In this document: piece after piece, positions 13,101 to 31,016 of the stretch | Numbering within the stretch: position 1 is the stretch's first letter | Layout: every line of letters starts with the position of its first letter | Source of the DNA: Cyanophora paradoxa CCMP329 | Taxonomy: Eukaryota > Plantae > Glaucophyta | Assembly: GCA_004431415.1 (NCBI GenBank) | Contig: QPMI01000416.1 | Location: forward strand, 62,001 to 126,000 | Length of the DNA: 64,000 nt | Direction: 5' to 3' | Translations under genes and position numbers: made by a program | The notes under the pieces: model-generated | What the model was told of the DNA's origin: nothing | What the model saw: the letters and a program-made list of their open reading frames with translations, nothing else | The model's database searches: none

Positions 13101-13412
13101 CCTTGATGGTATGTCTGGGTGAGTGCCACTGGTTTTTAGTTTCCTAGGTCTCCTTCTTGTTGCTTTGATCTCTGCTACTTGGTTGGCTTTCACATTACCC
13201 AAACTAAAAGCAACACTGACATCTTCTTTATTTGGATCAGTTTGATTCACAGATAAAGCATGCTCCCTTGATTGAGTCTTTGAAGAACCGTCAGAGCTGT
13301 GGTCGATTGATATTGAACCTTTAACTTTTATATTATCAAAGTTCACATGCTTTGTGCTGCTGGAATTATCATCTTGAATTGTTTCCAGATTAGGGGGGTA
13401 ATTAAAGCTCAT
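7110..13412 (-). CDS. Giant modular fibre/spike protein with C-terminal peptidase S74 intramolecular chaperone
   Basis: 2100 aa; SDIRYKTDI...GLIAQDVQKVIPEVV...EYTGLIPVLIEAVKEL; HxH tail-fibre repeats; LamG-like GDLAEIIVFNRAL; several internal duplications. Confidence 0.85.
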   Translation of the reverse strand: MSFNYPPNLETIQDDNSSSTKHVNFDNIKVKGSISIDHSSDGSSKTQSREHALSVNQTDPNKEDVSVAFSLGNVKANQVAEIKATRRRPRKLKTSGTHPDIPSRCDSGRLIFNVQDEQGKQNTGLRIYNEGSTTKTEVPQVLQVGHFQNTNQVCSTNDVYPKDITYDFARNEPFGFFTPKDVHQKKPSITINSSPSQPVAIHLHPDLVEMDRHLLPLYSNVKDLGIRTRQWRNIHGSNVYANGEKLVSEKTLREIIEHYGPNGPTVPFPIPFPNGPPDLTPKKQPGREYTATEDVAFGQHIVSWEQVRNKPIIEPRKQIDEQYLPPEIDILELEEYQFVPDEEEYLPDGFDPQEYEYDQFDPNEEEILPDGLDPQEFEYEQNYEPDEEYLPDGHDPPAVDYEQPYEPHEELLPDGFRPEIWEFFPDYEQINNKPAKYPPEDHNHDWDEILGKPQKYPPEDHRHDWGDIDGIPEEFPPSKHEHTWDEINDQPEFSKVEPLMGVSLYQTCNVPERIFLNEHYVNVDGSLANSAMRGPLHIRTLPGSFENPPEPGATIPNIFVSSYMEADIPTDTFRVPTDPATYQNYNSAIQVHVADVSSLDGSRPMIVFSRDKYSYIPIVGTANDNYGRAELAWIKTDYGGVLEANQRMAAKNIHNENISRVVTEDYLEDQGYIDEGELTNILSLFVIKNDTNLTVTSNIYTSNISASNIWTSNLWASNLWADDIYTSNLTVYRNITIGTQNTIQILYRPYYAVTTVIDPAPIIPNCIFAWKASGQHGELIYFEGQLYNRVTTQIPYITNNSKWESVYYYLNATLNNQISIGKELNLAYKSSVSIDWSSGLTVFFIGRINTTNPSYMLNIRDSSYQNWIGYGCKNQKFGVSLQIQNDVENATPPLFDASYIYNSWNYWDFTVSSEQIVVGMGGIDIGTSSGDFLPPSDFASFGSSVANGDLAEIIVFNRALSIEEKNAVRYYIQLLYGFPNTQPILNNEDLKINSSNIFIENLTVTKNATLPHHPTSNVVLDWLAKQKHTKADITDFDHTHTKSQITDFDHTHTKSQITDFAHTHLWEHITNPPLTFPPDPHTHDYSEITNSNHRHPWSEIDEQPVFAQLNAIGNVFNGVTLYQSINTPERLFLNDHYVSLNGSFTGETGTPMVGTLAVRLPRDPIVNGVYSGDFNVGINDTFPSIYVTNYHPGETGQVADFSAAIQINVTDQSAYDGARPKIVFTREKVVNYLPVAGQPTDDHGKCEMAWIKTTTGGALEVNQRMAAKNLHNTTLSGVVTDDYLENKDYVTNTELQLAVTDFVTDTDLTAALANYLPLTGGTVTGTVNATTLQIGGTTIPKGYDFDQLDVVSTDRSANNWTVNWTGHRTGQTGCYTTPENDADVTGCWMRWAIPEGMKSFYIQLLNWHNCRYFDIYGETVNGHQHFLKRVNHYQAIQDSGIQDGTYNAIIYTSINCDFYKKIVVKGVKGRIYFTGVFGWSRQRATDNDVGLIHYDNIAFNPVGKYSDFDVVSGWNSTGVDFVGNWTTAWKPTTDNPVEGFYCNQTDDESGSGYMQCVVPAGMKTCHIQYLCWTNGRYFDIYGYRNGRWNYIMRVNTYQNVQNTADTAWHSSLLWTSVFCGNFSHIGIFAKKGRIHIGMLGWTKEVGRTAPANGLISWDNIYSRPALITAADLPQTATWPTNTWLKSTDTVPRIWFGNGDCTYIRGYGNSGGVSIEFRDSADGAILKSYNNGNFWVKNTITAPTINATTDLQINGNAVPKFHTADKTKGGIEFNRCSYGDWTWAWSAAWDPHYNYGSYVHNNQTDDQTSTAWIDFDIPEGYHTGTAFLTYLPWVSSRLFEIWGVNRQGNEVFITSVNSYQPYATSPDGNHSGVNNVPIHLGNRFLTIRIRPKIGRVHIMGISYMKIWVGNSYGGHTGYIHWNNVYSKPNILTGDVGTWFNSSDGYNRIHFGNNTSTYLKGRGDIPLVFRNEQDTDICYMYHGGWMWIGGYLTQGSDIRYKTDIKKITGALSAIEKLEGVSFKRIGSEKDGTRLGLIAQDVQKVIPEVVNVKKDDGYLSLEYTGLIPVLIEAVKELSKKCKDLTQTCENLQSQIDQIKNVTV

Positions 13413-13455
13413 GGCTTTTACTATATGGATTTATAAAATTCCTTATAAGTATTAG

Positions 13456-15010
13456 ATGCCTCTCAAGGTCGTTTTAGCATTGTCAGGAGGCGGGGCAAGG
13501 GGCATTATCATTACCAGACTGCTCAAAGAAATCGAAAATCGAACTGGCAGGCGAATCATTGACCTTGTGGATCTTGTGAGTGGAACTTCCACGGGTGGGA
13601 TCATTGCCATTGGGTTGAACATCAGGCATCCAGATAGGGCAGGCGAACCCAAACTCACAGCCAGTGATTTACATAATATATACCTCACTCAGCTGCCCTT
13701 GATTTTCGCGAATCCTCGAAATATAATCGAAAATGCCCTTTTTAACACCAAGTATGATGTGGCTCCTTTGGAAAGCGCAATCTATTCTGTTACTGGCGAA
13801 TCTCTCATTCAAGATTCCTTAAAGGACATTGTGATTACTTCGTTTGATACTCAGTACATGAAACCTATATTTATCACAAATGATAACAACTACAACTTTC
13901 TGCCCTGTAAAATAGCAGCAAGGCTACCTCTGCTGCTCCCACCTACTTTTCTCCTGTGAGTATAGTTGATTTTAATCGAGGGGTAACTGCTTGCCTTATT
14001 GATGGTGCTATTTCAGGAAACAATAACCCAAGTGTGTGTGGCTATAGCCATGCGAGGAAGATTTACAGTGATGATGATGACATTATAGTTATAAGCATCT
14101 CTTGTGGTGAGGTAGACCCATATTTAGAGTCTGATTATTTCGGCTATGGTTATGAGACTGTGAATAGTTGGGGCATTCTCTCATGGATTGCCTCAACAGA
14201 TGGAAGCCCATTGATCAACATGCTCATGGCAGCAAGTGAGCTGTCAGCTCTTGACAAAATGGAGGAGTTGCTACCTTACAACTACGATCAGGATTATGGA
14301 GGTACTATAGGCTATCTGTTCCTCTTCCAAATCACATAGTCAAGTCCCTTGATGATACCTCTAAAATCCCCGACATGCTTGCGTTCACTGAGACATACAT
14401 AGCAGCAAACAACACCATGATTAATAAGCTTTGCGATTTGCTGGTAGCAAACTATGAATTAAAGAACCCATCAAAAGCTTACATCTCTTCCACTCTCACC
14501 CTGTCACCACCTTTGGATGCTAATTGGTACAAACTTGCTGATGATGCCTTTACTGCCTCCTCCTCTGTGATAGGTAAAGAGCCCCACATGGCTCGACCTT
14601 CATCATTTGGCTGGGAAGCTGGGGCATTTGCTCCAGAGCAGATATGGGAGACCCCCACTGAGTACCTTCAAGTTGCTTTCCCATATACGTTTGAACTCTC
14701 TTCAGTGGTTGTCTATGGGTCAGGGGACACCAATGCTTTCATAAAGACTTTCAATGTGGCTACATCAACTAATGGGGTCAACTGGTCTTTTATTCGAGCA
14801 GAAGGGCAGAACAAAACATTTGTATGTGAGAACATAAACAATGCTAATAATTCCGGCGATGTGGCTTTATTAAATGGTTACCCTCTCACCATCAAGGATG
14901 CTTTCTACGTAGGGTTCTCTTTGAGAATAAAGTATGTTCGCATTTATCCCCTTGTTTATGTCAATGCTCCCACAATGAGAGTCGATTTTACAGGTGCGTT
15001 TATTCGATAA
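13456..15010 (+). pseudogene. Patatin-like phospholipase fused to an F5/8 type C (discoidin) domain; two frameshifts
   Basis: GGGARG, GTSTG and DGA motifs; RYYRL...SLDDTS bridges 14339 to the 14375 frame; FTASS...YLQVAF...YVRIYP...MRVDF discoidin signature. Confidence 0.82.
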
Positions 15011-15933
15011 ACTCGAGCTGAAAAGAATTGTCAATTCCATTCATGTCAATGATGTCACCAAAGTAGTCTCTAAACTCAACTGTTAATTCCCTTACCACCA
15101 GATGTCGGTCATTAATTCGAATAAACTCCCATGTTCACCATTATAGTAAACATAGCCTCCTATATCCTTGCTTAATTGGAGTCTCAGTATGGCGCCTTGG
15201 TTTTGTGGCTGTGATTTTGGGACTATATTATGTCTGCTGGCAAAGGGAGCGAGTTCTTTGACATGTAAATAAAGGTACTGCTCAGCGTTCATATCTGCCA
15301 TCTTATTGCTGTAATAAACATATCTAAGAGGTGTGGACGAAAGTCTGGATCCCGAAAAGGTAGTTCCCCACAATGGGTGATTGAGTGTGATAGGTTTGCC
15401 ATCATACTTTAGAAAATTCTCAGGGCGATATGGAGATTGAGAGGGCGAATTGTCATCCATAAATGAAGACTGGAACTCAGTTGAGCTTAAACCCAATAGC
15501 TTACCAATGCGCTTATTGCTTGCTTTTATACGGAAAAATCTGTTACTGTAGAACTCCACTTTATAAGTGGTTGGATTGTAGAATAATTTGAATTCGAAAG
15601 CAACTGTTTTTCCTGCTATAGTTTCCTCATAGAACACATAGTTCAATCCATAGTTGTATGGTTGGGTGACCCGAAATGACCCTGATTGATATAACCGGTT
15701 GGCAAGGGGGAAATGTTGTAAGTTACTGTTTCAGTGACAGAACTATCCTGGTAGGTGAATTCCACTATTAAATGATCTGTTCCCACACTATTGTAAATGC
15801 TGTTTGGAATTTCTGCGTAAATAACCCTACACTCTCGAGGTCTCTCTACTGGAGTTGTGAGGGTGACCCTGTAAGAGTTTTCGGTTTCACCTTGGCTGCG
15901 ATCCCTGCTATCAACATTGACAAGCCGGTTCAT
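15000..15933 (-). pseudogene. Penton-like protein 2 of inner element, two frameshifts
   Basis: NVDSRDRS, YAEIPNS, YLYLHVKE, and LTVEFRDYFGDIIDMNGIDNSFQLEF in a third frame; homologous to 3217-4191. Confidence 0.75.
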
Positions 15934-15962
15934 TTTAATATATGAATATAGATAAAAGGAGA

Positions 15963-16972
15963 ATGCCCGTGGACTACATTGAGGTGAGCTCTTTTAATAC
16001 AATCTCTGGTGACGGTCCTACTTCAAGCTTTGTAGCTCGACTTCCAAACATATATGAGAATGTTAGGGCTGTCAGGCTGGTCTCAGCCGAATTTTATAAT
16101 AGTATCCCTATGGTGAGTGGTGAAACGCAACCAGGGGATATTACAATTGATAATTCATTCAGCATTTTTTGGAGTGAAGAATTCGATGGTGCTGGCATTG
16201 ATGGCATTCCAACTACTCGACCAGCGGCCGGCTTTGAACCTTGGAAGCAATTAATCATAAGTCGCAAAAAACCCATTCAAAGCCACCAGCAATTGGTAAA
16301 TGTAATTAATGCGAAATTCGATGATAGAGAGCCGGAACCATCTATTCGCTGTAAATGGGATGAGTCACTAAAACGGATTATATTCCACTCAGAGAAACCT
16401 TTCTATTTAGCCTTCTCTAACGCTGGAAATCCAAACCAGAAAACGATCCAAAAGTTACTGAGTGCTGCCCGATTGCTTGGTCTTGATCCCGGAAGATATG
16501 GAAATTCCCCAATTCAATCACAGGTTTATAATGCTCTTACTGATGGCATCTTTACTGGTGAACGGGTGAATGGTATTATATCTTCGTTTGAGCCTGAAAA
16601 GACAAGGGACAGTGTTTTATTTGTCAGAGTAAAAGAGTTGGGTGATCTGGTTCAGTGTGGGGATGGTCTCCTGACTGGTTACTTCCACAAAATCGTGGTT
16701 CCTGACAAGGACTATGGTGAGCATGTGGTTTACAATTCGACAGAATCCCACCCACTTTACAAATACTATAACAAAAAATGAGTTTGTCTACATTCTCTGT
16801 GGATATAGTAAATGCTATAAACGAACCAATTGATTTTGAGGGTCAACCTGTCCACCTCACATTTGAAATTCGCTATGGGGACGAGCCAGCAGGTGACCCT
16901 CTCTATGAATACTTTAAGATGCGGATGTCGCAAAGTCATCCAACATATCCGGTCATTGCGAGTTTCGGGTAA
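15963..16972 (+). pseudogene. Penton-like protein 1 of inner element, one frameshift near 16775
   Basis: LPNIYENVRAVRLVSAEFYNSIP and DFEGQPVHLTFEI; homologous to 1924-3189. Confidence 0.72.
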
Positions 16973-17026
16973 ACACAAGGATCATTCGTAATTTTTTTAT
17001 GTTACAGTATAATAAAAGCGAAAATC

Positions 17027-18397
17027 ATGGATATTACGTCGACCCTCCAGCGCCTTTCGTTGAAAGAAGCCCTAACAACCCCAGAGGAGGCCAAGGCCTT
17101 CTTTCTGGATAACTCCCTTATGCTTGGTCTTGAATCCAAGTCTAAGCCCGTTCTTGTTGTTGTGAACCCGAGCAATACTTTTGAAAATAATGTTGGAAAT
17201 CGCATTTCATTCAAACTCCCTCGCTACAATTTCTGTGGCAAACTCGAACTTGCCTTTGACCTTCCAGCTATCACTTTTGGTGATGCGGATCTTGTTCGGA
17301 ATGGGTACACTCGCCCAGTGGGTGCTTTGGTTCAGCGACTTGAAATTACCTATGGGTCATACACCTACCATATCCCTTCTGATTTCCTTGCTCATTTCCC
17401 TCTTGTCTATTATAGTGAGGATCAACTTGCCAAAAAGAAGCGGTCAATGGGTATGCTTCACGGCATCCCCGCCCATGGAACCAACCGACTTGGTGGTTCT
17501 TTCTTCGTCGAAATTCCTGTGCCTTGGCTAAACCACTACCTGCCTCTTGGTGCTCTGTCTGGTGAAATGGTAGTAACTGTTTGGTTCAAGGATGTAGGGA
17601 AGGGTTATGTTGAGACTTCTTATGGTGGTCGTACTCTTCCTAAGGCTGGGGACACAGCCATTGATGGGGACAAGGACGATGGGCTTGGCGTCGCACCTGC
17701 TGAATCTGTGCTGGCACATGTTGGCCAAAACATCACCACTTTCAATCTTGGTGCGCCGAGCACTGAAATTACAATTACTTCTCCTCGCCTTTACATGTAT
17801 GCTGTTAATGTGTCTGATGAGCTTTTTGCTACTGTTATTGAGAAGGTAAAGACTACTGGCATGGCTATCCCTGCTCTAGACATTGGATTTGTAGATGCTA
17901 GTGCTTTTTCTGCCAAGGGCAATGCCCAACCCAATCGAATTAACCTCTCTCAAATCTCAGGTCTCGTTTATGCTCTGCTTGTCTCGGTTCGCGATAACGC
18001 TAATGTTGACAAAGCTAATGGTTCCCACAGTGTTCTTAAGACCTACTCCAACTCCAAAGAGATCACATTCACAATTGAAATAAACGGCCAGCGACTTTAT
18101 GCCACTGAGCCAATTTCGCTCCTCAAAGGTGCTGAGCTGATTGCTGATGTCTTCAAATGCTCTAATATGGATAAGGTTGCTGATCGCTATGTTCTTTCGG
18201 GTATGAGTTTCTGTCTTGACGGTGAGAAGGCGATTCGCAATATTGCCCAGTCTGGCTATGTTGACCTGACCAATTCTTCATCTTCATTCCTCACTCTCTA
18301 CATGCCCACTGACAAGGTTATTGATGTCAATGTTCGCGCTCTCATGCACAGCTATATCATAGTGGACAAGGACGGGCTCCGAAAAATTAATCTATAA
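17027..18397 (+). CDS. Major capsid protein (PLV-type double jelly-roll), inner element
   Basis: 456-aa intact ORF aligning with 422-1870; upstream of the ATPase. Confidence 0.8.
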   Translation: MDITSTLQRLSLKEALTTPEEAKAFFLDNSLMLGLESKSKPVLVVVNPSNTFENNVGNRISFKLPRYNFCGKLELAFDLPAITFGDADLVRNGYTRPVGALVQRLEITYGSYTYHIPSDFLAHFPLVYYSEDQLAKKKRSMGMLHGIPAHGTNRLGGSFFVEIPVPWLNHYLPLGALSGEMVVTVWFKDVGKGYVETSYGGRTLPKAGDTAIDGDKDDGLGVAPAESVLAHVGQNITTFNLGAPSTEITITSPRLYMYAVNVSDELFATVIEKVKTTGMAIPALDIGFVDASAFSAKGNAQPNRINLSQISGLVYALLVSVRDNANVDKANGSHSVLKTYSNSKEITFTIEINGQRLYATEPISLLKGAELIADVFKCSNMDKVADRYVLSGMSFCLDGEKAIRNIAQSGYVDLTNSSSSFLTLYMPTDKVIDVNVRALMHSYIIVDKDGLRKINL

Positions 18398-18450
18398 ACC
18401 ATATTCAGTCACATCGTATTATTTTTATCTGGTTCTTTATAGAAGGAAGC

Positions 18451-19233
18451 ATGGGCGACTTGGACGAATTTAATGCTGGGGAGATGATAAATCCCCCTTT
18501 CCGCGTTTTGGCAATTGGCAAATCTGCTACTGGTAAATCAGAGGCTGTCAAGTACTGGCTCAAGCAGCTTCATGATGCCAAAAAGATTGATGTCGTTCTT
18601 GTTATCAGTGGAACTGCTTTTAACAACTTTTGGAACAATGTAGCAAGTGTTCAGCTTGGCAAATGGGATGCTCATTACATTGAAAAGGTTTTGGAAGATC
18701 GACAACAGAAAATAGAAAAGGGAGAGCCGATTAATCAACTCTTAGTTGTACTGGACGATCTAATTGATAATGACTTGGTCGATCTCACTCGCGATAAAAT
18801 AATCAACAAATTGTACTCTATGGGCAGACATTTGAAAATATCTATTATCTGTATCACACAAAAGCTAAGGAAAGTCTCATCGACCATTCGCGTCAACTCA
18901 GATTATGCTATGTTCCTAAGCGCTGCCAATAGAAAGGAGCTTGAAGCCATTGAGGAAGAATACAATATAATGCGGGACAAAGATGTTTTCTATAAAATGT
19001 TTGAAGAGTACGTTCATTCCTACCAGTTCCTAATTTGGTCATCTGCCGATTATTCTGTGAAATATTTCGTAGATAAAGCGGATTTGGTCAAAGATTTCCC
19101 ATTTCCACGGTTCCACAGGAAGCCAAAAAAGAAAGAAGACGAGCTTAAACCACCAGAGAAAGAAGAGGGGCGCAAAGAAGTGAAAAGCCAAGTTCATAGT
19201 AATAAGTTAATGCGATATAAACGCGGTCTATAA
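18451..19233 (+). CDS. A32/FtsK-like DNA packaging ATPase
   Basis: GKSATGKS (Walker A), LLVVLDD (Walker B), GRHLKISIICITQ, IRVNSDY. Confidence 0.92.
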   Translation: MGDLDEFNAGEMINPPFRVLAIGKSATGKSEAVKYWLKQLHDAKKIDVVLVISGTAFNNFWNNVASVQLGKWDAHYIEKVLEDRQQKIEKGEPINQLLVVLDDLIDNDLVDLTRDKIINKLYSMGRHLKISIICITQKLRKVSSTIRVNSDYAMFLSAANRKELEAIEEEYNIMRDKDVFYKMFEEYVHSYQFLIWSSADYSVKYFVDKADLVKDFPFPRFHRKPKKKEDELKPPEKEEGRKEVKSQVHSNKLMRYKRGL

Positions 19234-19261
19234 AAATATCTCTCACTTTAATAAAGACGCA

Positions 19262-19996
19262 ATGCCCCCCAAACGCAAAATAGGCATCCCTGCTGGGGCT
19301 GTTGGTTATTCAGGCGGTGGTAACAATGGCTCCATTAACACAGACCCGCTTAAATTCAATGGAATGAATGAGATAAAGCCCTCACAACAGCAAGAGGATC
19401 CCCTTAATGCCGCCTATGAGGAATCCTTTGATGACAAAGCCCCACAGACGTCCACCAGTGATCAGCTCAACATCTCCCCTGAAGCCTCCAAAATGAAGGC
19501 TGTGGGTGAGGGTGCCAGGCGAATTATAGGTGCTGCTGATGATAAAGGTCTTGGGCTCCAAGATCTATCACTCACTCGCAAAGGTGAGGGTCTCAGTAAA
19601 GAATCCGACAAGGTTATCCAGTCTATGGCGGGTGAAGTCACATACAAGACTGCTCCCACCCAGAATATTCATAGAGTTCCCAAAGCTCAATGGGACGAAA
19701 TGACTGCCAAACTTAAAGATCTGGAAGCCAAGTCAAGTGCCTTAGAGCAGTATGTAACTGAGAAGAGAGAGAGATCCAAACTCAAGGAAATGCTTAGAAA
19801 GGAGGTGTTCAAAATGGGGATCACTGGAATTCCAGATAAACAGTTTATTGCCAAGAAAGAGACCCAAATCGATGAGCAAGCTGTTGATGAAATGAAAACA
19901 AAGACCCAAAAGGGGACTATTGAGCCTGGCGCTACAAAGGCTGAGGTGGACAAAGGTGTAGCTCCCACAGTGTATAAACGACGGGTTTGGCTTTGA
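19262..19996 (+). CDS. Hypothetical charged protein (possible core protein)
   Basis: 244-aa ORF, basic N-terminus MPPKRK, coiled coil. Confidence 0.6.
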   Translation: MPPKRKIGIPAGAVGYSGGGNNGSINTDPLKFNGMNEIKPSQQQEDPLNAAYEESFDDKAPQTSTSDQLNISPEASKMKAVGEGARRIIGAADDKGLGLQDLSLTRKGEGLSKESDKVIQSMAGEVTYKTAPTQNIHRVPKAQWDEMTAKLKDLEAKSSALEQYVTEKRERSKLKEMLRKEVFKMGITGIPDKQFIAKKETQIDEQAVDEMKTKTQKGTIEPGATKAEVDKGVAPTVYKRRVWL

Positions 19997-20021
19997 AAGC
20001 ATTTTTCTATAGATATTATAA

Positions 20022-20252
20022 ATGGAGGACACCATTAGTCTGGTGGAGTTCACTGTCGATAGCCCTGTGACTGAGAGTTACATTAAAAACGCTTTAGCAA
20101 ACCAAAAAAGATACAGGGAAGACCCAAAATATAGAGAGTTTAAGAAACAGCAAGCCTTGGCATCATATTATCGCCGAAAGGCACAAAAAGAAGCAGTGAG
20201 GCCCATAGGGAGGCCAATTAAATATTATCAGACTACTGAGAGCAGCAACTGA
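20022..20252 (+). CDS. Small basic putative DNA-binding protein
   Basis: DPKYREFKKQQALASYYRRK...IGRPIKY; resembles 25188-25379. Confidence 0.5.
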   Translation: MEDTISLVEFTVDSPVTESYIKNALANQKRYREDPKYREFKKQQALASYYRRKAQKEAVRPIGRPIKYYQTTESSN

Positions 20253-20277
20253 GTTATTTTGTCTCGTTAATAGTAAG

Positions 20278-20484
20278 ATGTGGCAATGGCTCCAACAATT
20301 GCTGGATATGTTTCATATACATGTGACCAGCAATTATAAATGTAGCTGTTGCGATACTACTATTGACGTCAGCATTGGATCTTCCTCCCCAAGTGGATCC
20401 AGGAGGAACTCTTTGGATGTGGTGATGGCAGGGCTGGCTCGCATGAGGGGCAAAGGGAAAGTTTGGAGCCTATTGGAGAGGTGA
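20278..20484 (+). CDS. Small hypothetical protein (CSCC motif)
   Basis: ATG after an AT-rich spacer; amphipathic N-terminus. Confidence 0.35.
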   Translation: MWQWLQQLLDMFHIHVTSNYKCSCCDTTIDVSIGSSSPSGSRRNSLDVVMAGLARMRGKGKVWSLLER

Positions 20485-20674
20485 ATGGCGCGGAATTGGT
20501 TGAGGCTGTAAATAACGCATTGGATGAGTACCAAGGGCAGCTACATGTTCAGGTTAGGCCTTCAACACCTGAAAGGGGAACGTTTACGCATATGGGGATC
20601 ACTATAGGAGGCTCAAGACGCTTTCAGCGACGCGGTGATCAGGGCATACCATTTAAGGGAGCAGGTTGAACACA

Positions 20675-20911
20675 TCACTGGCCATCAGGGAAGGTATTAA
20701 TCTCGTTTCCAAGCATGAGAAGGTCGTTTGATATTTTTTGTAAGGCTGCTTTAATGTGTGGAGACAAAGGAGCTATGCGGTGTCCAAGGTTGTACAGTTC
20801 TATAGAGAGGCGATGTATGGAGTTACTCAGTTCTGAGCTTGGAGACGTCAGCGCCAAATATGAGAGTTCAAAGGACACCTCTACAAGGCGAGTATGGATG
20901 GGAGTTGTCAT
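20675..20911 (-). CDS. Small hypothetical helical protein
   Basis: 78-aa ORF with an AT-rich leader. Confidence 0.35.
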   Translation of the reverse strand: MTTPIHTRLVEVSFELSYLALTSPSSELSNSIHRLSIELYNLGHRIAPLSPHIKAALQKISNDLLMLGNEINTFPDGQ

Positions 20912-21247
20912 AATAATCTACTTTTAGGCAGCATAAAAATGCGAAAGGGGCGGCTCTGCGTAGAGCTTGATGAGAGCTTCACAGGAAAAAAAAGAGCGCT
21001 CAAAACGGCCAATCTGGTGCCGAGATATTCGCGTTTGAAGTTCCTTAAGTGGCTCTAATTGAAAGTTTTAGAAACATTCTTATAGAGCTCTATAAGGAAA
21101 AAGCCGCCTACTGCTGTACGGTAGGCATGCGGGCTCTACCGGTAGGACAGTAGGCAGGGCCCTACTGTCCTACCGCCGGCGGCCTGTGCCTACCGGTCTG
21201 CGGTAGACACGCGGGCTCGCCTACCACTGCGGTAGGCTGGCTCATAT

Positions 21248-21895
21248 ATATGTATATGATATATATGAAAAAAAACAAGTTTTGGTAAAAACCACAGCGC
21301 CGTGATCGCCATGACGCGGCGAGTCCGAAAAGCTATGATATATATATATATGTCATGTGACATCATAATATATCATATACATATATCATTATGGTATATA
21401 CAAGTCGCTCAAATTGAAGTCTTATAAGGTCTTATAAGAGTTGTTATATAGAATTCTTTTCTAAAATCTTATATGGTCTTATAAGATTTAATGTGCGTAC
21501 TTTAGCTGGTACGCAGGCCAGTGTGCGTACCGTAGCGCAGTACGCAAGCCACTGTGCGTACCGTAGCGCAGTACGCAAGCCAGTGTGCGTACCGTAGCGC
21601 AGTACGCAGGCCACTTTGCGTACCGTAGCGCAGTACGCAGGCCACTTTGCGTACCGTAGCGCAGTACGCAAGCCACTGTGCGTACCGTAGCGCAGTACGC
21701 AGGCCCCTGTGCGTACCGTGGCTCAGTACGCGCGAACGTACATATGTATATGATATATATGAAAAAAAAACAAGTTTTGGTAAAAACTATAGCGCCGTGA
21801 TCGCCATGACGCGGCGATTCCGGAAAGCTATGTTATATATATATGTCATGTGACATCATAATATATCATATACATATATCATTATGGTATATACA
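21248..21895. repeat. Two ~150-bp direct repeats (21248-21402, 21742-21895), each an imperfect palindrome
   Basis: TGTATATGATATATATGA...AAACAAGTTTTGGTAAAAAC...TCATAATATATCATATACA occurs twice. Confidence 0.9.
21492..21732. repeat. Tandem array of a 31-bp palindromic unit (about 7 copies plus 1 degenerate)
   Basis: TGTGCGTACCGTAGCGCAGTACGCA(A/G)GCCAC, with TGCGTAC/GTACGCA inverted inside each unit; no spacers. Confidence 0.95.
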
Positions 21896-22070
21896 TTTGG
21901 TATATGCGAAACTGAAAATATTCGTAGCTCGTCACCAGATCATCGTAAGGCTATGATGTTGGGGTCTATAAATATCTACTTTTTACGAGAATCCAACGGT
22001 GATAGCGGCAAGGAGTGAATCGGTGATGGTGAAAAGGTTGTCTCTGGATGTTTCAATCTGCTTCTCAATT

Positions 22071-22331
22071 TCAATTTGTTCCAAGAGCTGCCCTCTTTTT
22101 TATTTCGAGCAGCTTTTTCATGATATATTTGTCATCTTCTTCCAAGAGAGGATGTTTTTCCTGTGCTGCTCTTGGTCTGTTTTCCAGATCTTCTTTAAGC
22201 TCATGGAGTGTGTGGAGTAAAAATCTCTTTCTTTTGTCATTCTCATCCATCTCATTCACAATTCGCTCTGTCTCTCCATAGCGTTTCTGTAACTTCATTT
22301 CCTGCCTTTTATTACAGCTGTCCATTGACAT
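22071..22331 (-). CDS. Small coiled-coil hypothetical protein
   Basis: 86-aa charged ORF preceded by TTAAAG boxes. Confidence 0.45.
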   Translation of the reverse strand: MSMDSCNKRQEMKLQKRYGETERIVNEMDENDKRKRFLLHTLHELKEDLENRPRAAQEKHPLLEEDDKYIMKKLLEIKKRAALGTN

Positions 22332-22379
22332 CTTGATTCCCTTTAAACAATTATGGTGTTCTATTCTTTAAGTGGTGGG

Positions 22380-22560
22380 AGGGTGAATGGGGTGAATGGC
22401 AGGGTGAATGGGGTGAATGGCAGGGTGAATGGGGTGAACGGGTTATGTGTAAACTTTCTTAGGAAAACCCCCTCTCATGGGGATTTATACATATAACCCG
22501 TTCACCCCGTTCACCCCGTTCACCCCGTTCACCCCGTTCACCCCATTCACCCCATTCATC
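22380..22560. promoter_or_regulatory. Putative origin: inverted arrays of 9-bp GGGGTGAA(C/T) iterons around a ~55-bp spacer
   Basis: Directly downstream of the primase-helicase stop; inverted second copy at 30660-30822. Confidence 0.6.
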
Positions 22561-22621
22561 CACTTAACCACTCTTTCTTAAAAACATAAAATGCTTTTCT
22601 CAGAATATTTACTACTTTCAA

Positions 22622-25083
22622 TCAATCACTGTCACTTTCAATCCCCATCTTTGCCTTGATTCCAACATAATGCCAGAGCCTTACTTTCCCAATCTGTTTC
22701 TTAGGAATCCCATTGATCACAGTCATAGCTGTTCCAAAGGCTGTTTGGCTCATTTCTTTATCCACTCTGGAATACTCTTTGAATAGATCAGCTGCTTTGA
22801 TGACGTCACTGCTGCTGTGGGTGATTTCAAAGTTTGCCTGAAGCCATGTCAGCACTGGGTTGTTTTCAGTGATATATTCCTTGCTGGCCTCTTTGACAGA
22901 TTCAGGCACTGGGATGAAGCCCATGGCGCCCACCTCAGTGGTGTATGTGTCAATGAGCAGCCTCATGAAAGCCTGAGCATATCTCTCATCATCTCTAATT
23001 CTGCCCATCAGGCTGGGGTCTGCCTTCTTTTGGCCTTGAATGGGATTCTCTTTGAACTGGTATTCAAAATGGGACACATGGAGGCGCCTTTGGATGCCTC
23101 CATCCAACTTGGAGAGCTTTGGAATATCATTTGTCAGCAGGAAGGGAATGAATTGAGGAGTGAATGTGATGGGGTTAGCATGTAATAAACGAGCAACAAG
23201 TTTCTCACCTCCAGTGATCTCCTTGATTTTGCCCACCTGAAGCTTGTCACTGGCTTCAGGCTCATTGGAGAAGATGATCCTCACACCCTTTTTGTCAGCC
23301 AGCTCAGGCACAGGGGCGCCAGACCTTGGTTTCCCACTGACCCAGTAGGAGCTGTCAAGGGGATGGGCATAATCACCCAGAGCCTTGAGAACCAACTCTT
23401 GGAGTGTAGATTTGCCATTGGAGCCAGTGCCTGTCCAGATGTGGAAGCGCTGGTCTTTGTTGCCCTTCCCAGAGAGGGCACCTGCCAATGTCCTCACAAG
23501 GAATTTGCCAGTCTCTTGATCTTTGAATGGCTCATATACAATTTTCTTGATTTCTTCCATGACATTCCCATCAATCATAGGGGCATATGGATAGCCACAA
23601 GTCCTACTGACATACTCATCAGCTTTGGCTGGGCGAAAGACCTTATTTTGAAGGTCATAGACTCCATTGGTAAACCCAATCAGCTCCTTAGATTCATCCA
23701 TACTGGCAGCTATTTCAGTGTCAGCAAAGAGAGCCTTTGCTTCCTTGATGATGGAATCTTTGAAACCACACTTAAGGAGCTGCTTGGAAATTTCAAGGCA
23801 TTTCTTGGCATTCTCCTCATACTTTGAGCTTTCATCTGGATCAGCAGCAGCTGAACGAGTGTTTTCCATTGCCTCCTTCATAAAAAGCTTCATGACATCA
23901 GTGGAAAGCACTTTGCGCAGTGTATGGGGTTCCTTTTCAGCTCTCCACAGTCCAGTGAGCTTATTCCTGACATACCAGATGTCTTTTTGATTGGCATCAT
24001 AGCGGAATTGGTCTTTTTGTGTGTGGTACAGGACTTCAGCCACATTGTAATGACCCCCATTTGAAGCAATGGCATTTTAATGGCCTGCTTGAGGTCTCCC
24101 TTATTGGTAAACAGCTGAATATATAGATCCAGATTATCAGCTTTGAGCCAATAGACAAGAGAAGCATATGCCAATGGCTTTACTGAGCTACCTTTTTGGA
24201 AGCTCTGCCAAGCCTTGTCACACGCCTCAGCCCTATACTTGCTGCTCTGTTGGCTGAATTTGTGCCAGATGGCCAGTACTTTGTCTTCAGGCATTTTCTT
24301 GTCTTTCATAGTGCTTGTCAGGGCCAAGCCAACATTAATCCAGTCAGCATAGCCATCAGCTCGTTTTTCACTGAGTCCCATCACAAGCTTTTCCAGCTCA
24401 TCACTGGTGATGATTTCGCTGGAATACTCATTATTTTTGGGCAGCTCCTGGGCAGGCTCCTCCTTCTCTGGAAGAGTGAGCAGGGCCTCCTTGCCAGTGA
24501 GAAGCTGGACAAAGAAATCAGTGTCCTCATGGGATGTTAGCTTGGTGAACACAGTGTCCCAGCAAGGTTCCTCATAGGTGCTGCTCTTGTCAGCAAGAGC
24601 CTTCTCTTTACAGCAACCAAGGCACACAAGCGCCCTGTTGTTGTTGTAAACAGATGGATCATAGTCCTCATGAGGCTTGAGCCCAGCCCCCTCAAGGAAA
24701 ACAGGGAAATCCCTGTAGATGCCATGAAGGGTGGTACATACCATGTGGGCACTCACTTTGTAGCATGGATCCTGTGTGTCTTTTTTGATCAGCAGCCTTG
24801 ATCTGGTGGAGATGGCAATGGTGCTGATGTGGACACCAAGTGCCTTGGCCAGCTTTTCAGCCTTGGAATTGATAAGCTCAAGTCCCTCATCATCAACCTC
24901 ATCAACAGGCAGAACCTGTTCGAAATCAATGTAGAGCTTGGTGAATTTATGGCCACTCAAGTACTCAGCCATGTGCCTGTTGCCTGAAGCAATCCTCTGG
25001 AGTGCCTCAGTGACCCTGATAGTCACAGTGCTGGCTTCGCGACTGCCAATGATGCTTGTTAGGAAGGTGCCAGTGGATGTCAT
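22622..25083 (-). pseudogene. AEP primase-PriCT-2-D5/SF3 helicase, one frameshift near 24050
   Basis: KLYIDFE, SAH, DPSVY (AEP); YADWINVGLAL..WHKFSQQSSKY (PriCT-2); LIGFTNGVYDL, GTGSNGKS, NEPE, KEITGGE (D5 helicase). Confidence 0.9.
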
Positions 25084-25187
25084 TCTACTATAGGATGAGA
25101 AAATAATTTGATGATTCTATAAACACCCTTGTCCTTAAGTAGTTTATAGAATCATTAAATAAAACAATCAATTTTTCGCGACCCCCC

Positions 25188-25379
25188 TCAATACACCACT
25201 GTCCTTGGTCTGCCAACAAGGCACCTCCTTTCATCAAAGAGGTACCTCACACAGGGAAGGGGGTCACCCTTGTAGTATCTGCTCCTTAGACTATTAAGCT
25301 TCATTCTCTCACGGAAAGCAGGATCTTGAGCACGGCGACGAGTCACATAGGCAATTTGAGATGCCGCATGGTATGCCAT
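25188..25379 (-). CDS. Small basic putative DNA-binding protein
   Basis: DPAFRERMKLNSLRSRYY...VGRPRT; resembles 20022-20252. Confidence 0.5.
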   Translation of the reverse strand: MAYHAASQIAYVTRRRAQDPAFRERMKLNSLRSRYYKGDPLPCVRYLFDERRCLVGRPRTVVY

Positions 25380-25434
25380 TTTAGTTCTTGTTCCTCTACA
25401 CTATAGGTAAGATTTTATTCTTTAAATGCTGATT

Positions 25435-26005
25435 CTATTCGGTATTTTGTGCCTCGGGCTTAATCTCATTGAGAGCGGCAAAGTCTCCATAGTGTTCAAT
25501 TGCCGCCTGATTGTAGGCATGAGCGGCTAAGGCTTCATTTTTGTAATACCCAAAGAGAGCCTTTTGTCATTAATTGTAATCTGAGCACACCATTTACCCT
25601 CTCGTTTCTTGAAAGAAACACCTTTATATTGACTGCTTGTATTGCTGCTTTTACTCCTATTCCTATTATTCTCAAAAGGATAGCATACCCTCAGATTACA
25701 CTTCCTGTTGTCCAATTTATCTCTGCTCACATGGTCGACAACCAACCCTTCTTCAGTTCATTTGTCATTATCAATCGATGAGCATACAATACCAACCATT
25801 TCCCTTCATCTCGCTTTACACTTGTCTTAGCATAACCATCCCCATCCAAACACCAGTTATATCTCATCATTGTAGGAGCATCTTCGATATCACATATCAT
25901 ATACTGGCCCCTTCCTTTGGCCCCTCCAAGTGGAACGTAGAAATATTTCATGGAGTCCACGTCGTCAAACTTGGTTTCAACAAAATCCTGATCAAAGGTT
26001 TCCAT
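25435..26005 (-). pseudogene. HNH endonuclease with AP2 domain, two frameshifts
   Basis: YFYVPLGG, AHRLI, VVDHVSRDKLDNRKCNLR, SQYKGVS, AAHAYNQAAIEHYGDFA; homologous to 33774-34484. Confidence 0.85.
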
Positions 26006-26100
26006 TTTTCGTCTACAATAGACACACAAAATAATCTTCCAAATTCTACGCGGCATTTAAAGATTATTTTCGTACCTATATATAAGTACAACCCCCAACC

Positions 26101-29100
26101 ATGCCCCGCCCCAGCCACTACCAAATTAAGGAGCTTCAGGACAAGATTCTTGGGAATCTGGCGTTCCTACTGGCCAACCACTCGATCAGTGAAAGTGAAT
26201 ATGAATCATACATAGGGCAAACCAACAAAAAGCTCAAAGGATTACAAGCACTCAATCGAGAACTATTAGGGAAAATCGACGCCCTTGATGAGACTGATCG
26301 CCTTGGCCAAATCCAAGTCGAACAGACCACCACAACTCAAGTCAGAGGAGATGAATACACAGCTCTAATTAATGAGCATCGCGCTCTAAATAATAAATAC
26401 ATTGATTTCACAATCAGAGCTCAGCACCAGATCCTGACCACCCAAGAATTTATTGACACCTACTCTGAGGAACTCCACACAAGGCTCCAAGATGCCATCA
26501 ATTCCCAGATGTCGATTAAAACTCGCTTTACATTTGTCTGTCGCTTTTCAAAAGCAAACAATTCGAGAGATTTTATTACCAAGCACATTTACAGCACCTA
26601 TGCTATCATGACAAGATCTCGAATCCTCACAAAAGAGACAGCTAAACTTGCCAAGGAATGCCAGTCGCAAATTAATGTCACAGATAGCTACAGATTAGAT
26701 AGCATCCAAGCCCTCAGGGTCATTGTTCTCTCCTTTAAGCCAATCTCAGGAGGTGCTTTTATCCCACTCCCAGAGTGGCTCAAAAATAAACGAGCCATTG
26801 TCAATGTCAACAACAAGGACAATAGATGCTTTGAGTATGCTATCCTTTCTTATATTCACAAGGACGAAGTAAATAGCCACAAGCGTAATGAGACTTCCCA
26901 ATATAGGAGGTGGTTCAAAAAAGAACTAAATTTCGAGGGCATTGACTTTCCTGTAAAGGCAGATGCTGATACTATCGATCTCTTCGAAAATCTCAATCCA
27001 GCAATCTCTGTTAATATTTACGACCCCTCTAACTCTACAGAAGAAATTAATCTACTCCACAACAGCTCCTCAAGGAACAGGAAACACCAAGTGGATCTGC
27101 TGCTAATTACAGACGCAAATGGTAACAGTCATTATACCACAATATTCAGCATGTCCAGACTCTTAGCTAAGAATGATAAGCAGCGACTCCATTTCTGTAA
27201 AACCTGTTCCAACCACTTCAAGACTGAGGAGAAGCTTCAATCCCACAATCAAAGCAAACGTTGTGTGGATTGGAAGACAAGTGCTGGAGAGACTCCAAAA
27301 CAACCCACATTCATTGAATTTGGTCTTAAACATCTCTCAAAGACTGTATTCCTCCCAGTGATTGCCTATTGCTATTTCGATTTTGAAACAGATCAAGAAG
27401 GTATGTTCAAGATCAAATCAATCTCACTGACAGCTCTTCATAATAATAGAGTAGTACTCACTAAAACCCACTCCAGCATCTACGAGCTTTTATCTACACT
27501 CGACAAAGCAGCCCCAGAGCTATTTAAAGCCCTATTTACCAACGTCCCAATGTCACTGACCAAAGAGCAGAAACGTACCCATTACCTTGCTAAAACCTGC
27601 TACATCTGTGAGGGTACGTTTTCCCAAGACAATTATAAAGTCCGCGATCATGACCATCAAACAGGCGATTTTGTAGGCTCAGCCTGTCGCAAATGTAATC
27701 TTCACAGACGCACCAGCAATCTCACCAAGATTCCCATAGTGACCAATGATCTGTCCCTATCTGGAACGCAGATATTCAAGGCAGTCGCCTTAAATCCCGA
27801 AAAAAGGGTGGAAGTCCTCGCGAAATCGTTTGACAACTACATGTCGATCACATGGGGGTGCTTTAAGTTCATTGACATCAAAAACTTTATTGATTATGGT
27901 GTCCAGAACGTGGAAGGATTAATGGAAAAGTTCCAGCTATTTCGCCAGAAATCCCACAAGACCTATGGAATGGATGCTGCCCACTATGTCTCAAGTCCTG
28001 GCCTTTCGTGGGACAGCATGCTATCGATCACCAAGCCCAAAATCGAACTCCTCTCCAACCTTGATATGTACAACATGATTGAAGGCATGATCAGGGGAGG
28101 CCTTTCGATTATGAATCATAAATATGCCAGAGCTGAAAATGACAGCCACATTATCTATTTGGACGCCAATAACCTATATGGATATGCCCTGTCCCAAAAG
28201 CTACCCCTGTCTAATTTCCAATGGCACCCAGAACCCTCAAATTACGACCTGTCATCAGCAGGTGGTGCTGTACTGGAGGTGGACATTCATTATCCCCAGC
28301 ACCTCCATGAACTCCACAAAGAACTGCCTCTTGTCATCAGGAGAACAGAAGATGGGCTACAAGCAGCCTGCCAAGACATTTCCAACTACGTAATATCAAA
28401 ACCATTGCTCCAATTCATGGTAGCACAAGGCTTAAAGGTCACCAAAATCCACAGGGTGCTGACATTTACTCAGGCTGCTTTCATGAAGCCCTACGTCAAA
28501 TCTAATGCCCAAAACCGCAGAGAAGCCGCCTCCAAACCCGAAAAGGACTTCTTTAAAATCATGAACAACAGCCTTTTCGGCAAAACCATTGAGAAAGTGA
28601 GGGAAGGTCGAATGTCAAGATTGCCACCAACGAAAAGCAATTTATGAAATATGCCAGATCCCCACTTCTCAAAGCCGAAACCAGGCTTAGTGATTCAGCA
28701 GTAGCCTTCGAAATGCTACAGAAAGACGTCAAGCTGGACAAGCCCATAGCAATTGGGGCAGTTGTTTTAGATCTTGCCAAGCTACGCCTATTTGATTATT
28801 ATTATAGCACCATCAAGCGCAAGTGGCCAGACTGTAAGCTACTATTTACTGATACGGATTCTTTCTGCCTTTCAATAAATTCCACAACCATCCAACAGGA
28901 TCTACAAGACATTGACACACACCCCACAGAGCTTGGGAAGTTCAAAAATGAGTTTGAGGGCAGAACCATTACAGAATATGCTGGTGTGAGGCCGAAATGC
29001 TACAGCATTAAAACAGATGATGAGGAAATCAAAAAGCTGGCTGGTGTTTGTAAGGAGACCATTCAAACAGATCTGTCTTTCCAAGATTATAAAGACCATG

Positions 29101-29195
29101 TGCTCCACCAAAAACCCAAGCAAATCGAAATGACTGTCCAAAAGAAGCTTGAAAATGAGACCTTCAATGTGAAGATGTCAAAGATTGCTTTCTAA
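26101..29195 (+). pseudogene. polB: Protein-primed family B DNA polymerase (Polinton type), frameshift near 28610
   Basis: YLDANNLYG, KIMNNSLFGKT, LLFTDTDS; Endo VII-like CYIC..DHDH..ACRKCN insert; DNRCF...SHY vOTU-like region. Confidence 0.92.
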
Positions 29196-29206
29196 TCTCA
29201 ATATAG

Positions 29207-30577
29207 ATGTCATCAAAGATCGTACGCAGACAAACAGAATATGATGTGAGTGTACTCCCTATCCCAATCCCTCAAGAAGAGAGAGGGGGGCGCATACAGA
29301 AAAAGAGTGACCTCAAAGCATTAGTTCCAGCAGACATCCCAACAGCAATTGCTGTGCCCCACTTGGATCCCTTAGCAAGGACATTCTATGACACCAAGGT
29401 AGGATTTAAAGGCCTTGCTTCATTGGCCAAAGAGCTTCCAGATGTGCCAAGAAAGACAATCCGTAGATTCTATGATGCCCAAGAAATCAACCAAATAAAT
29501 AAACCCCTCCCATCAGCCAAGAAGACTGCCTATATCCCCATAAGACAGCCACTCGATACATTCGCTATTGATTTAGTCTTCTTTCCCTCATACAGCAAAC
29601 AGAATCAAGGCTACAACACGTTCCTCACAGCTGTAGAAAACACCACCAGACTGGGCTTTATTATTCCAATGAGGGGAAAGACAGCAGAAAGCACATTGAA
29701 CGCATTTAAGGAGCTTGAGCAACAAGTCCCTCGTCCAATTGTGAAGATACAAAGTGATGCTGGGAGCGAATTCCTGAACAAGGTATTTAAAGACCATTTA
29801 GAAACCCAGATGATTGAGCACCAAGTTTCGCAGGTTGGAGATCACAATAGCCAAGGCCGAATAGAGGCCTTTAATCGCACAATAAAGAAGCTAATTAACT
29901 CGTATTGTATAGCGAATAATACTGTAAAGTTTTTCGACAAGCTCCAAGATTTTGCCTACAACTACAATAATACCATCCACTCAGCAACAGGGATGAAACC
30001 AGCAGAGACCACAGAGGTACATGTTCCCCTCATACTCGCAAAAGAAAACGAGAAATTCATGAAGTCAATTGAATATCTAAAGGACTATCCAGCGGGAACC
30101 CACGTGAGAACTAAAATAGAGAAGGGTCCATTCGCCAAGCAGGGCAATAATTGGAGCCGCGAAATATTTACAATAGAAGGAGTGGAGGGGTTCAAGTTTA
30201 GATTGAGGGACATTGCCGGAAAAATGATTGATCGACTTTATGCCCACTACGAATTACAGAAAGTGGAAGCCGTGGAGTTTCTGGAAGCCCCATCAATAAA
30301 TGTCATTGAAGAGGCAAAGAAAGAGGCCAGAACAGAGCGACTGTTGGCCAGAGAGGGGATTGAGAGGGCTCCAAATGTGCCAGATAAACCATTATTGGAG
30401 GACAGAGCAGGGAAGAAGAAGAAACAGGGGAGAGAGTTGGAGAGATTGAGGGTGGCGGGAACAGAGAGATTAGCAGGGGGAGCAGAGGCAGTAAGGTGGT
30501 ATAGAGATTTCTCGAATTCAAAGGAGACCTATGAAGCTCCAGCAATTTCCACGAGATCAAGGAGGAGGGCAGGATGA
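29207..30577 (+). CDS. Retroviral-type (rve, DDE) integrase of Polinton type
   Basis: AIDLVF, QSDAGSEF, RIEAFNRTIK, YNNTIHSATGMKP, NWSREIFTI; consistent with a 6-bp TSD. Confidence 0.95.
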   Translation: MSSKIVRRQTEYDVSVLPIPIPQEERGGRIQKKSDLKALVPADIPTAIAVPHLDPLARTFYDTKVGFKGLASLAKELPDVPRKTIRRFYDAQEINQINKPLPSAKKTAYIPIRQPLDTFAIDLVFFPSYSKQNQGYNTFLTAVENTTRLGFIIPMRGKTAESTLNAFKELEQQVPRPIVKIQSDAGSEFLNKVFKDHLETQMIEHQVSQVGDHNSQGRIEAFNRTIKKLINSYCIANNTVKFFDKLQDFAYNYNNTIHSATGMKPAETTEVHVPLILAKENEKFMKSIEYLKDYPAGTHVRTKIEKGPFAKQGNNWSREIFTIEGVEGFKFRLRDIAGKMIDRLYAHYELQKVEAVEFLEAPSINVIEEAKKEARTERLLAREGIERAPNVPDKPLLEDRAGKKKKQGRELERLRVAGTERLAGGAEAVRWYRDFSNSKETYEAPAISTRSRRRAG

Positions 30578-30596
30578 GACATCTGTAAAGGTTGTT

Positions 30597-30822
30597 AAGG
30601 ATTGTTAAGATTGTTAAGATTGTAAAGGGTGTAAAGGGTGTAAAGGGTGTAAAGGGTGTAAGGGTGAACGGGGTGAACTGGGTGAACGGGGTGAACGGGG
30701 TGAACTGGGTGAACGGGGTGAACGGGGTGAACGGGGTGAACGGGTTGTTTGTATAAATTCCCGTGAGAAGGCATTTTTCCTAAGAAAATATACAAACAAC
30801 CCGTTCACCCCATTCACCCTGC
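30597..30822. repeat. Graded 9-bp tandem repeats plus inverted copy of the 22380-22560 iteron cassette
   Basis: AGATTGTTA > AGGGTGTAA > GGGGTGAAC units, then spacer and GTTCACCCC. Confidence 0.9.
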
Positions 30823-30843
30823 TGATGCCAAACTCATGTGTTC

Positions 30844-31016
30844 AATACCCCAGAGGGGGCCAACATACTGGTGCCCAAAAGACATGATTAATACCCTAAG
30901 ACCTGAAATAAATGCTTACTACCCTAGTACCTGAAACGCGCACACATAGGGATACCCCTGATCCAAGCCTGTAGGCCGAAGGCCGGAGGGCTTGGATCAG
31001 GGGTATCCCTATGTGT
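30844..31016 (-). repeat. Right TIR of inner element, with terminal hairpin 30942-31016
   Basis: Reverse complement of 4763-4935; followed by TSD CTGATG at 31017-31022. Confidence 0.95.

Follow-up and report, generated by a model that had tools for sequence, protein, structure and literature searches.

The stretch of Cyanophora paradoxa DNA analysed here (the window, 64,000 nucleotides) carries an integrated element of about 26 kb (4763..31016), flanked by TIRs of 174 bp that are 98% identical, each beginning with a 75-bp hairpin, and by a 6-bp TSD, CTGATG (4757-4762 and 31017-31022). By its double jelly-roll capsid protein, A32 ATPase, TIRs and TSD, this inner element is a polinton-like virus (PLV). 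It is nested in a second polinton-like element, whose capsid protein is 36% identical to its own and whose right end lies near 39700. A gene of the outer element is interrupted by the inner one (4210-4770 / 31011-31369) and seems to resume past the right TIR. At the end of the outer element stands a perfect inverted repeat of 29 bp (39400-39428 / 39671-39699, 242 bp apart); the repeat ends read ACACATAG / CTATGTGT and are identical to the end sequence of the inner TIR hairpin (4763, 31016), which is likely a shared integrase end signal.

The capsid and ATPase genes (17027..19233, plus strand) lie to the left of the region studied here. The major capsid protein (17027-18397) is a predicted double jelly-roll, and the best Foldseek matches of its AlphaFold model (pLDDT 69.6, pTM 0.75) are iridovirus and PBCV-1 capsids (E 3e-18). 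Its closest relative is a single Cyanophora paradoxa protein (58% identity), followed by five more distant ones; the family is thus small and distant, with six relatives at E <= 0.001 among 1.84 billion representatives. The A32 packaging ATPase (18451-19233) matches Pox_A32 (E 2.6e-13). IMG/VR yielded no protein relatives of the capsid, the ATPase or the single helicase, and JGI metagenomes none of the capsid alignment. Farther to the left, 7110-13412 encodes a fibre-like protein of 2100 aa with a C-terminal Peptidase_S74 chaperone domain, near patatin-like and F5/8 type C genes. Neither a cysteine maturation protease nor the Sputnik-type capsid family, as expected of polintons in the strict sense or of virophages, had a Pfam match among the 28 proteins scanned, a scan that small or divergent genes may escape.

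The right-hand block contains a D5/SF3 helicase part (22622-23893) and a PriCT-2 primase part (23890-25083), both on the minus strand, which are split between two frames here and form a single gene in virophage relatives. Three other genes likewise occupy two or more frames: an unnamed plus-strand gene before the array (20278-20927), an HNH-AP2 gene (25440-26056; the outer element encodes a homologue too) and a PolB-like gene (26101-29195). Since public contigs show single-base insertions at 20426, 20574, 20606 and 21988, some of the frame breaks may be assembly errors of the window. A polinton in the strict sense would carry an rve integrase and a protein-primed PolB. The integrase here is rve-like (rve, E 1.1e-5, below the curated cut-off), and the PolB-like gene, without a match in the profile library, is one that we take to be such from motifs visible in its translations.

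A doubled array of palindromic modules

Between these blocks, 20927-22026 holds no ATG open reading frame of 60 aa or more, and most of it is taken up by an array of palindromic repeats (20930-21900). Counting inverted repeats with arms of at least 6 and spacers of at most 12, we found 36 in the array, against a mean of 3.5 and a maximum of 8 in 100 dinucleotide shuffles; of 40 windows of 971 bp in 1-39700, the 38 that lie clear of the array all hold ten or fewer. The array as a whole folds at z = -9.5 and -8.4, single modules at -3.4 to -6.1, and the flanks at -1.8 and -1.7. The repeats are therefore confirmed as real and above chance.

The preliminary description had listed six blocks in this region, and all of them lie where it had put them, in the order given. 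It had sorted them into four families; they are better described as three module types forming a three-part palindromic unit, A-B-C, present in two tandem versions (A1-B1-C1 and A2-B2-C2). Module A consists of CTTATAAG boxes, B of GC[C/G]TAC..GTA[G/C]GC half-sites with a 31-bp period, and C of an AT-rich TATATG cassette. A1 (21041..21103) is an AT-rich mirror module (GC 0.30; fold z -3.4) with imperfect arms of 28 nt, in which CCTTAAG at 21043 is followed by an 18-bp palindrome, CTTATAGAGCTCTATAAG (CTTATAG-AGCT-CTATAAG), at 21079-21096. B1 (21103..21243) is GC-rich (0.68; fold z -5.6) and is composed of GCCTAC/GTAGGC half-sites, with three GCCTAC-N7..9-GTAG[G/A]C palindromes and a 15-bp perfect hairpin at its centre (21140-21175). 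C1 (21244..21402) is again AT-rich (0.30), with TATATG and CATATA arms; its 19-bp perfect inverted repeat (21246-21264 / 21368-21386) encloses an A-tract and a GC-rich hairpin.

In the second unit, A2 (21402..21491) carries CTTAT[A]AG boxes in two pairs (21421/21431 and 21468/21478); the boxes of a pair are spaced 10 bp apart, and an AT-rich spacer separates the pairs. The boxes that had been reported from both A blocks are thus perfect only in the second (21421, 21431 and 21478), the first being devoid of a perfect CTTATAAG. B2 (21494..21731) bears out the 31-bp TGCGTAC..GTACGCA array, in the form of eight TGCGTAC-N8..9-GTACGC[A] palindromes of period 31 whose half-sites change direction every 15/16 bp; its spacers are near-identical, and unique spacers of the CRISPR type are absent. 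C2 (21738..21895) lies 494 bp downstream of C1, and the two cassettes, described earlier as 150 bp long, measure 159 and 157 bp, are 94.3% identical and each carry inverted arms of 17-19 bp about 103 bp apart. A MITE could have arms such as the 19-bp ones of C, and one X19 contig gives C another left context (see below); the identity of C1 and C2 nevertheless runs on for 16 bp past the right arm, in the manner of a segment duplication.

The two-unit reading follows from three things taken together: the likeness of C1 and C2 stops at 21402 and 21895, exactly where (at 21402) A2 begins with a 17-nt match to A1 (21047-21063, 88%); A1 and A2 align, with a local score of 29 that 1 of 200 shuffles equalled; and the B modules have a common motif plan, the B1-B2 local score of 28 being equalled by 9 of 200 shuffles and hence borderline. 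All 11 GC[C/G]TAC-N7..9-GTA[G/C][A/G]C sites of 1-39700 lie within B1 (three) and B2 (eight). A and B have diverged between the units and the C cassettes are near-identical, and because C is so much more alike than A or B, we infer either gene conversion or capture of the second unit from a diverged relative.

The region had been called a control region. As a promoter this is doubtful, since the main gene blocks on both sides point towards the array; the same convergence weighs against the more general idea of a transcriptional enhancer or sensor, through which a factor of the virus, a helper virus or the host (for example HNH-AP2 or small basic proteins) would activate or silence the provirus. 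Phased palindromes would suit dimeric factors, HNH-AP2 homologues are present in both elements, and CpG o/e is 1.37 in the array and 1.38 in the outer stack (see below) versus 0.36-0.56 in inner coding DNA, a figure, however, that is driven by the tandem copies. A further lead is the 76-aa small basic protein with a GRP motif encoded just to the left (20022..20252, plus strand), a candidate binder whose weak AT-hook lead (score 0.87, 14% of that cluster) nevertheless stays under the 0.9 line. None of the array motifs figures among the words commonly found ahead of 24 gene starts, and we regard an enhancer role as unlikely. A single copy of the mimiviral early motif AAAATTGA is present in 1-39700, on the minus strand at 25168, and the matches to it in A1 and A2 (6/8 and 7/8) are not above chance; a scan for sigma-70 promoters and terminators, unsuited to this host, gave results at chance level.

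The 20022 protein and a second small basic protein, at 25188, belong to no Pfam family and show a weak likeness to each other (E 0.004). No homologues of the former were found among proteins of 41-133 residues, and it aligns poorly with small virophage proteins. These two, together with the HNH-AP2 proteins of both elements, are the other candidate binders of the array.

Constraint and variation among sibling copies

Public sequencing runs contain sibling copies of this region: in 20 of the 24 runs listed, all of them from the same organism, about 60% of the words of 17000-25000 are present. The comparison below rests on four runs (X1, X2, X18 and X19), of which X1 and X18 are one sample. Within the window itself, the seven full units of B2 show nine differences (six distinct) in their spacers and none in their half-sites, a count that stops short of the final unit's tail, in which a single half-site base is changed at the end of the array; in the first, shorter unit both half-sites are intact. 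Among siblings, none of the 14 substitutions listed in 21041-21895 falls in a motif box (246 of 855 positions; nominal p 0.009), a result drawn from the best 40 of 137 rows, in which the changes are not independent and which is partly circular, the boxes being exact matches in the window. Two of the listed substitutions restore boxes that have decayed in the window.

Variation among copies, which the preliminary description had made a test of its proposal, is plain. B1 exists in several alleles (depths 181, 107 and 55 in X19), one of which, seen in 3/4 runs (loose end 21135), has an extra GCCTAC palindrome exactly 31 bp after the first, which adds to the case for a motif plan common to B1 and B2. 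About 130 bp past C2 lies an exchange point (22027..22036), marked by a drop in word depth and by loose ends at 22027, 22030 and 22036, from which three other right-hand continuations depart (22027 in 4/4 runs, 22036 in X2 and X19, 22030 in X19); the window's own 22028-22068 has a depth of 11 in X19. Just left of the array, the word depth of single contigs is 544, 1159, 347 and 96, and at 22121-22322 it is 64, 155, 48 and 13; the former exceeds the latter 7.3-8.5 times in 4/4 runs, word depth not being equal to copy number. Because of this excess over the gene to the right, the depths hint that the array is common to many copies; it appears to be retained among related copies whose right-hand genes are not the same. 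A gene immediately to the left of the array is variable as well: in siblings, other sequence takes the place of 20536-20682, with loose ends in X2 and X19 and a joint in X18.

It had also been proposed that the direct C repeats let the middle of the array be deleted or swapped by recombination. The data so far do not bear this out: no joint inside the array is among the matches listed in the four runs, whose contigs are too short to reveal a deletion between 94%-identical repeats of 158 bp, the depth of A2 relative to the left flank is 0.75-0.88 in X19 and 0.8-1.6 over the four runs, and the exchange at 22027-22036 lies outside the repeats. As A2 is near the left flank in depth and no joint inside the array is listed, both units seem to be kept in most copies. 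A related possibility is that module exchange is driven by the array itself, acting as a site for site-specific recombination or resolution; its direct repeats are 494 bp apart, and the exchange point is 130 bp off. Neither a tyrosine nor a serine recombinase was found among the 28 proteins scanned, no joint inside the repeats is listed in the four runs, and the three different continuation points better match non-homologous gene replacement; we consider such a site highly improbable.

The depth of the array itself is similar to that of 20000-20900. Coming after the capsid-ATPase block at a similar depth, the array might instead be a packaging signal for the A32 ATPase or a small basic protein, much as the A-repeats of adenoviruses are packaging signals. 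It is internal, however, 9 kb from the nearer end, its two-fold symmetry lacks direction, and it is the outer element that has a stack at its end, all of which makes a packaging role improbable.

Mirror modules in the window and beside helicases elsewhere

A detector of mirror modules (a 7-mer occurring twice, then its reverse complement twice, within 260 bp) marks only B1, A2, B2, positions 22381 and 30662 (an inverted copy) and the outer stack in 1-39700, with none in coding DNA; with 6-mers, C1 and C2 are marked as well in 20900-22600. The module at 22381 is a GGGTGAAYG array (22376..22569; 54-bp spacer; fold z -8.3) that lies 53-64 bp behind the helicase stop and has the same low depth as the helicase, with an inverted copy at 30672-30822 (88% over 151 bp). 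Since it lies directly behind the helicase, shares its low depth and, with its inverted copy, brackets the replication genes, this module would likely be the cognate origin of the resident helicase. The inverted GGGTGAA pair (22376-22569 and 30584-30822, the right one 22 bp from the TIR) encloses the genes for helicase, primase, PolB-like protein and integrase, which look like a self-contained cassette with a putative origin of its own. The array is different: it does not adjoin the helicase gene, from which a further gene and a further module separate it, and its depth differs about 7-8.5-fold. It does not follow the resident helicase, and it fails the linkage test of primase-SF3 helicase origins.

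The same type of module recurs beside other helicases. Of 167 IMG/VR loci that encode a related helicase, the best 80 were searched, together with Lactobacillus phage A2, which was added by hand. Modules lie at -150..+600 of the D5 helicase stop in 18 of the 81 loci; after clustering at 70% identity, 6 of 18 clusters have one near the stop, whereas random anchors average 1.0 and 0 of 2000 reach 6, and with phage A2 excluded the proportion is 5 of 17 clusters against 4 of 101 stops of other long open reading frames (Fisher p 0.003). The other 12 of 18 clusters have no module near the stop by this detector, which also marks the annotated rep_origin of phage A2. Three of the loci (L003, L009 and L012) encode Sputnik-type capsids; in three (L008, L011 and L013) the helicase is flanked by modules of two families; and three (L003, L005 and L010) have a TGTAGG module, a tRNA-Gln and an AT-rich palindrome stacked upstream of the primase-helicase gene. 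Some modules of virophage contigs have GCCTAC/GTAGG cores.

These virophage-like contigs have further features in common. In 5 of 10 loci scanned, the non-coding stack that immediately precedes the primase-helicase gene includes a tRNA-Gln(TTG) gene, with a mirror module and an AT-rich palindrome beside it (such stacks lie at L003:1450-1860, L005:1780-2200, L010:4095-4470 and L009:3335-3650); no tRNA is found within our window. An AATCGCA...TGCGATT mirror core lies 15-20 bp past the helicase stop in 6 of 12 loci (L002, L003, L004, L005, L007 and L009) and recurs elsewhere in the same genomes, most copies being missed by the stricter detector. Directly after the GTGTAGG module, L011 (1735-1998), L012 (3395-3604) and L013 (4073-4300) encode a small basic protein with YY motifs that loosely resembles the 20022 protein, and L008 carries a gene for the small subunit of ribonucleotide reductase (5791-6723).

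The exact A and B motifs of the array have no real match in IMG/VR or the JGI metagenomes, and it is the build, behind helicases and in virophages, that recurs. As DNA patterns, a single B2 unit, a pair of B2 palindromes and the pattern of A2 gave 0 matches in IMG/VR. The general B pattern had two matches each in metagenomes and IMG/VR, attributable either to chance or to terminator-like hairpins in tandem that follow genes of bacteria or phages. A blastn search of phages returned just three 40-bp matches (E 0.3), and none of the 19 Rfam matches in 20200-22700 reached its gathering score. B1 recalls the bacterial GTAG-type REP elements; this identity was ruled out, no HUH transposase having been found and the host being eukaryotic. 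Stacked mirror modules are thus no peculiarity of the inner element, even if these searches found no real counterpart of its exact motifs.

The lack of matches in other viruses is one of several points that would fit a mostly neutral origin, in which a spacer between converging genes was shaped by slippage, gene conversion and unequal crossing-over, C being a small mobile or duplicated piece: the tandem expansion of B2 is recent, the C copies are near-identical, and in one X19 contig the left end of C is joined to at least 255 unrelated letters. Yet changes avoid the half-sites, every module has mirror symmetry, the same build is found behind helicases and in virophages, and both units are seemingly kept in most copies. 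We think a neutral array unlikely on balance.

The outer element has a mirror-module stack of its own (37458..39400), of the AACTACGC and GTTACAGGT types. TGCGTA occurs 16 times in the array, 18 times in the outer stack and seven times in the remaining 36.7 kb, and 21 nt of B1 match the outer stack, a likeness that none of 200 shuffles reached, in one of the 36 pairs compared. In all, 26 common 8-mers were counted between array and stack (background mean 3.1), and were set aside, the stack being internally repeated and the background coding. The suggestion that the array is a modular set that behaves like protein-binding sites, as in that stack, is thus upheld: half-sites are spared by change in the window and among siblings, the build is the same, and the TGCGTA core is common to both. 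The shared sites, and the expansion of B2 to eight copies, could also point to a decoy that titrates DNA-binding proteins of a helper giant virus or a rival PLV. No helper is known, though, and the common core was noticed after the fact and may reflect common descent (the capsid proteins being 36% identical), so that a decoy is a distinctly unlikely explanation.

A candidate origin-type array and its known counterparts

The array is real, constrained and variable, and by its layout it would be of an origin-type docking kind. We hypothesize, with a confidence that stops a little short of even, that it is a family-wide candidate docking array for proteins, of replication-origin type, which is kept while the genes to its right are exchanged. 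This reading is suggested because mirror modules are enriched behind D5 helicases, because the detector marks the phage A2 origin and because virophages stack such modules; and also because the half-sites are spared in B2 and among siblings, and depth is high left of the exchange point. In the proposed mechanism, the gene-free doubled A-B-C unit would act in cis. As 31 bp make three turns, a protein that is dimeric or sits head to head would bind B along one face of the helix, and the AT-rich A and C might be places of DNA bending, melting or extrusion. With specificity shifted from GCCTAC to GCGTAC in the second unit, two different initiators could load. Rather than the resident helicase, whose own module (22376-22569) sits behind its gene at low depth, the main binder would be an initiator or SF3 primase-helicase from a sibling module, from the family of the outer virus or from a helper virus. 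Recombination from C to C would restore a single complete unit.

Several points count against an origin. The array is unlike proven origins of this type in that it neither lies directly behind the helicase nor follows its depth; the B arrays alternate direction every 15.5 bp, without two opposed clusters; and an element with pPolB and hairpin TIRs may do without an internal origin. In PLE, according to the available portion of the source, replication did not depend on two of the three parts that were deleted, nor on three of the four types of repeat (PMC7145576).

A bolder version holds that the units are two tandem origins with different keys, unit 1 (GCCTAC) serving initiators of its own family and unit 2 (TGCGTAC), with its core in common with the repeats of the outer element's end stack, borrowing or soaking up the replication protein of a co-resident family, so that the element would be replicable whichever module is swapped in, and that such stacks are overlooked origins of PLVs and virophages generally; we hold this to be rather unlikely, if worth stating.

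The cis-acting signals of PLVs and virophages (origins, packaging and helper-specificity sites) are mostly unmapped, and the array offers short, well-bounded candidates that can be cloned. The same genome contrasts a family-wide array with a helicase-linked module, and an easily detected type of module recurs beside virophage helicases, which bears on how elements survive the exchange of replication genes and on the mutual exploitation of co-resident elements.

The hr repeats of baculoviruses and the family of repeats in EBV oriP are tandem palindromes with a period of about 30 bp that bind a dimeric viral protein and serve as origin or enhancer. They belong to unrelated viruses and show no sequence link to the array (the Rfam baculovirus NAE match, E 1.9, is below threshold). 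The core origin of SV40, in the accessible text of its description, is a set of inverted pentamers with a palindrome and an AT-rich tract as its flanks (PMC1779811), a three-part layout like that of the array and one that is read by an initiator-helicase. Unlike the array, it is 64 bp long and single-copy, with GAGGC sites; the likeness is one of layout, and no homology is claimed.

As the available part of one source has it, pRN1 replicates from a movable stem-loop behind a primase-SF3 helicase gene, and in the same text the P4 alpha protein binds origin repeats via a winged helix (PMC4234260). Like the origins of pRN1, P4 and phage A2, the array has mirror-symmetric repeats or a long stem-loop with an AT-rich core in the neighbourhood of a D5-type helicase gene. 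On the available accounts, those origins are single modules directly behind the gene, unlike the array with its six stacked modules 700-1600 bp further on; 22376-22569 fits their pattern.

Elements of the PLV kind are mentioned in Cyanophora (PMC12220804, PMC8502044, as far as their accessible text goes). The PLV and virophage literature, in the portions available, describes exchangeable replication blocks, helicase-flanking repeats, terminal palindromes and nesting (PMC11296320, PMC8547959, bioRxiv 10.64898/2026.07.28.741278, bioRxiv 10.1101/2025.10.09.676808; a further preprint for comparison, likewise partly available, is bioRxiv 10.1101/2022.07.28.501842). Like the published elements, the inner element combines a conserved structural block and an exchangeable replication block with palindromes at the TIR ends, nesting and repeats of the kind proposed as origins. 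The published repeats, in those portions, are terminal or flank the helicase; here they are internal, doubled and of several families. The literature covered, which took in few subscription papers and left supplements outside its scope, holds no description of an internal doubled array in PLVs or virophages.

Another counterpart is PLE, a satellite of Vibrio phage, which in the available text has four repeat types in one non-coding region, one of them the origin, with origin and initiator swapped together (PMC7145576, PMC8263062). As far as these parts of the sources show, PLE is, like the inner element, a virus parasite with several repeat types in a gene-free stretch between gene blocks; its repeats too are semi-palindromic and about 30 bp long, and replication parts are exchanged within the family. 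PLE differs in being bacterial and in using a RepA_N initiator, which was not found among the proteins scanned here; and where PLE swaps origin and initiator together, the array, built as a doubled three-part unit, seems to stay while its neighbour changes.
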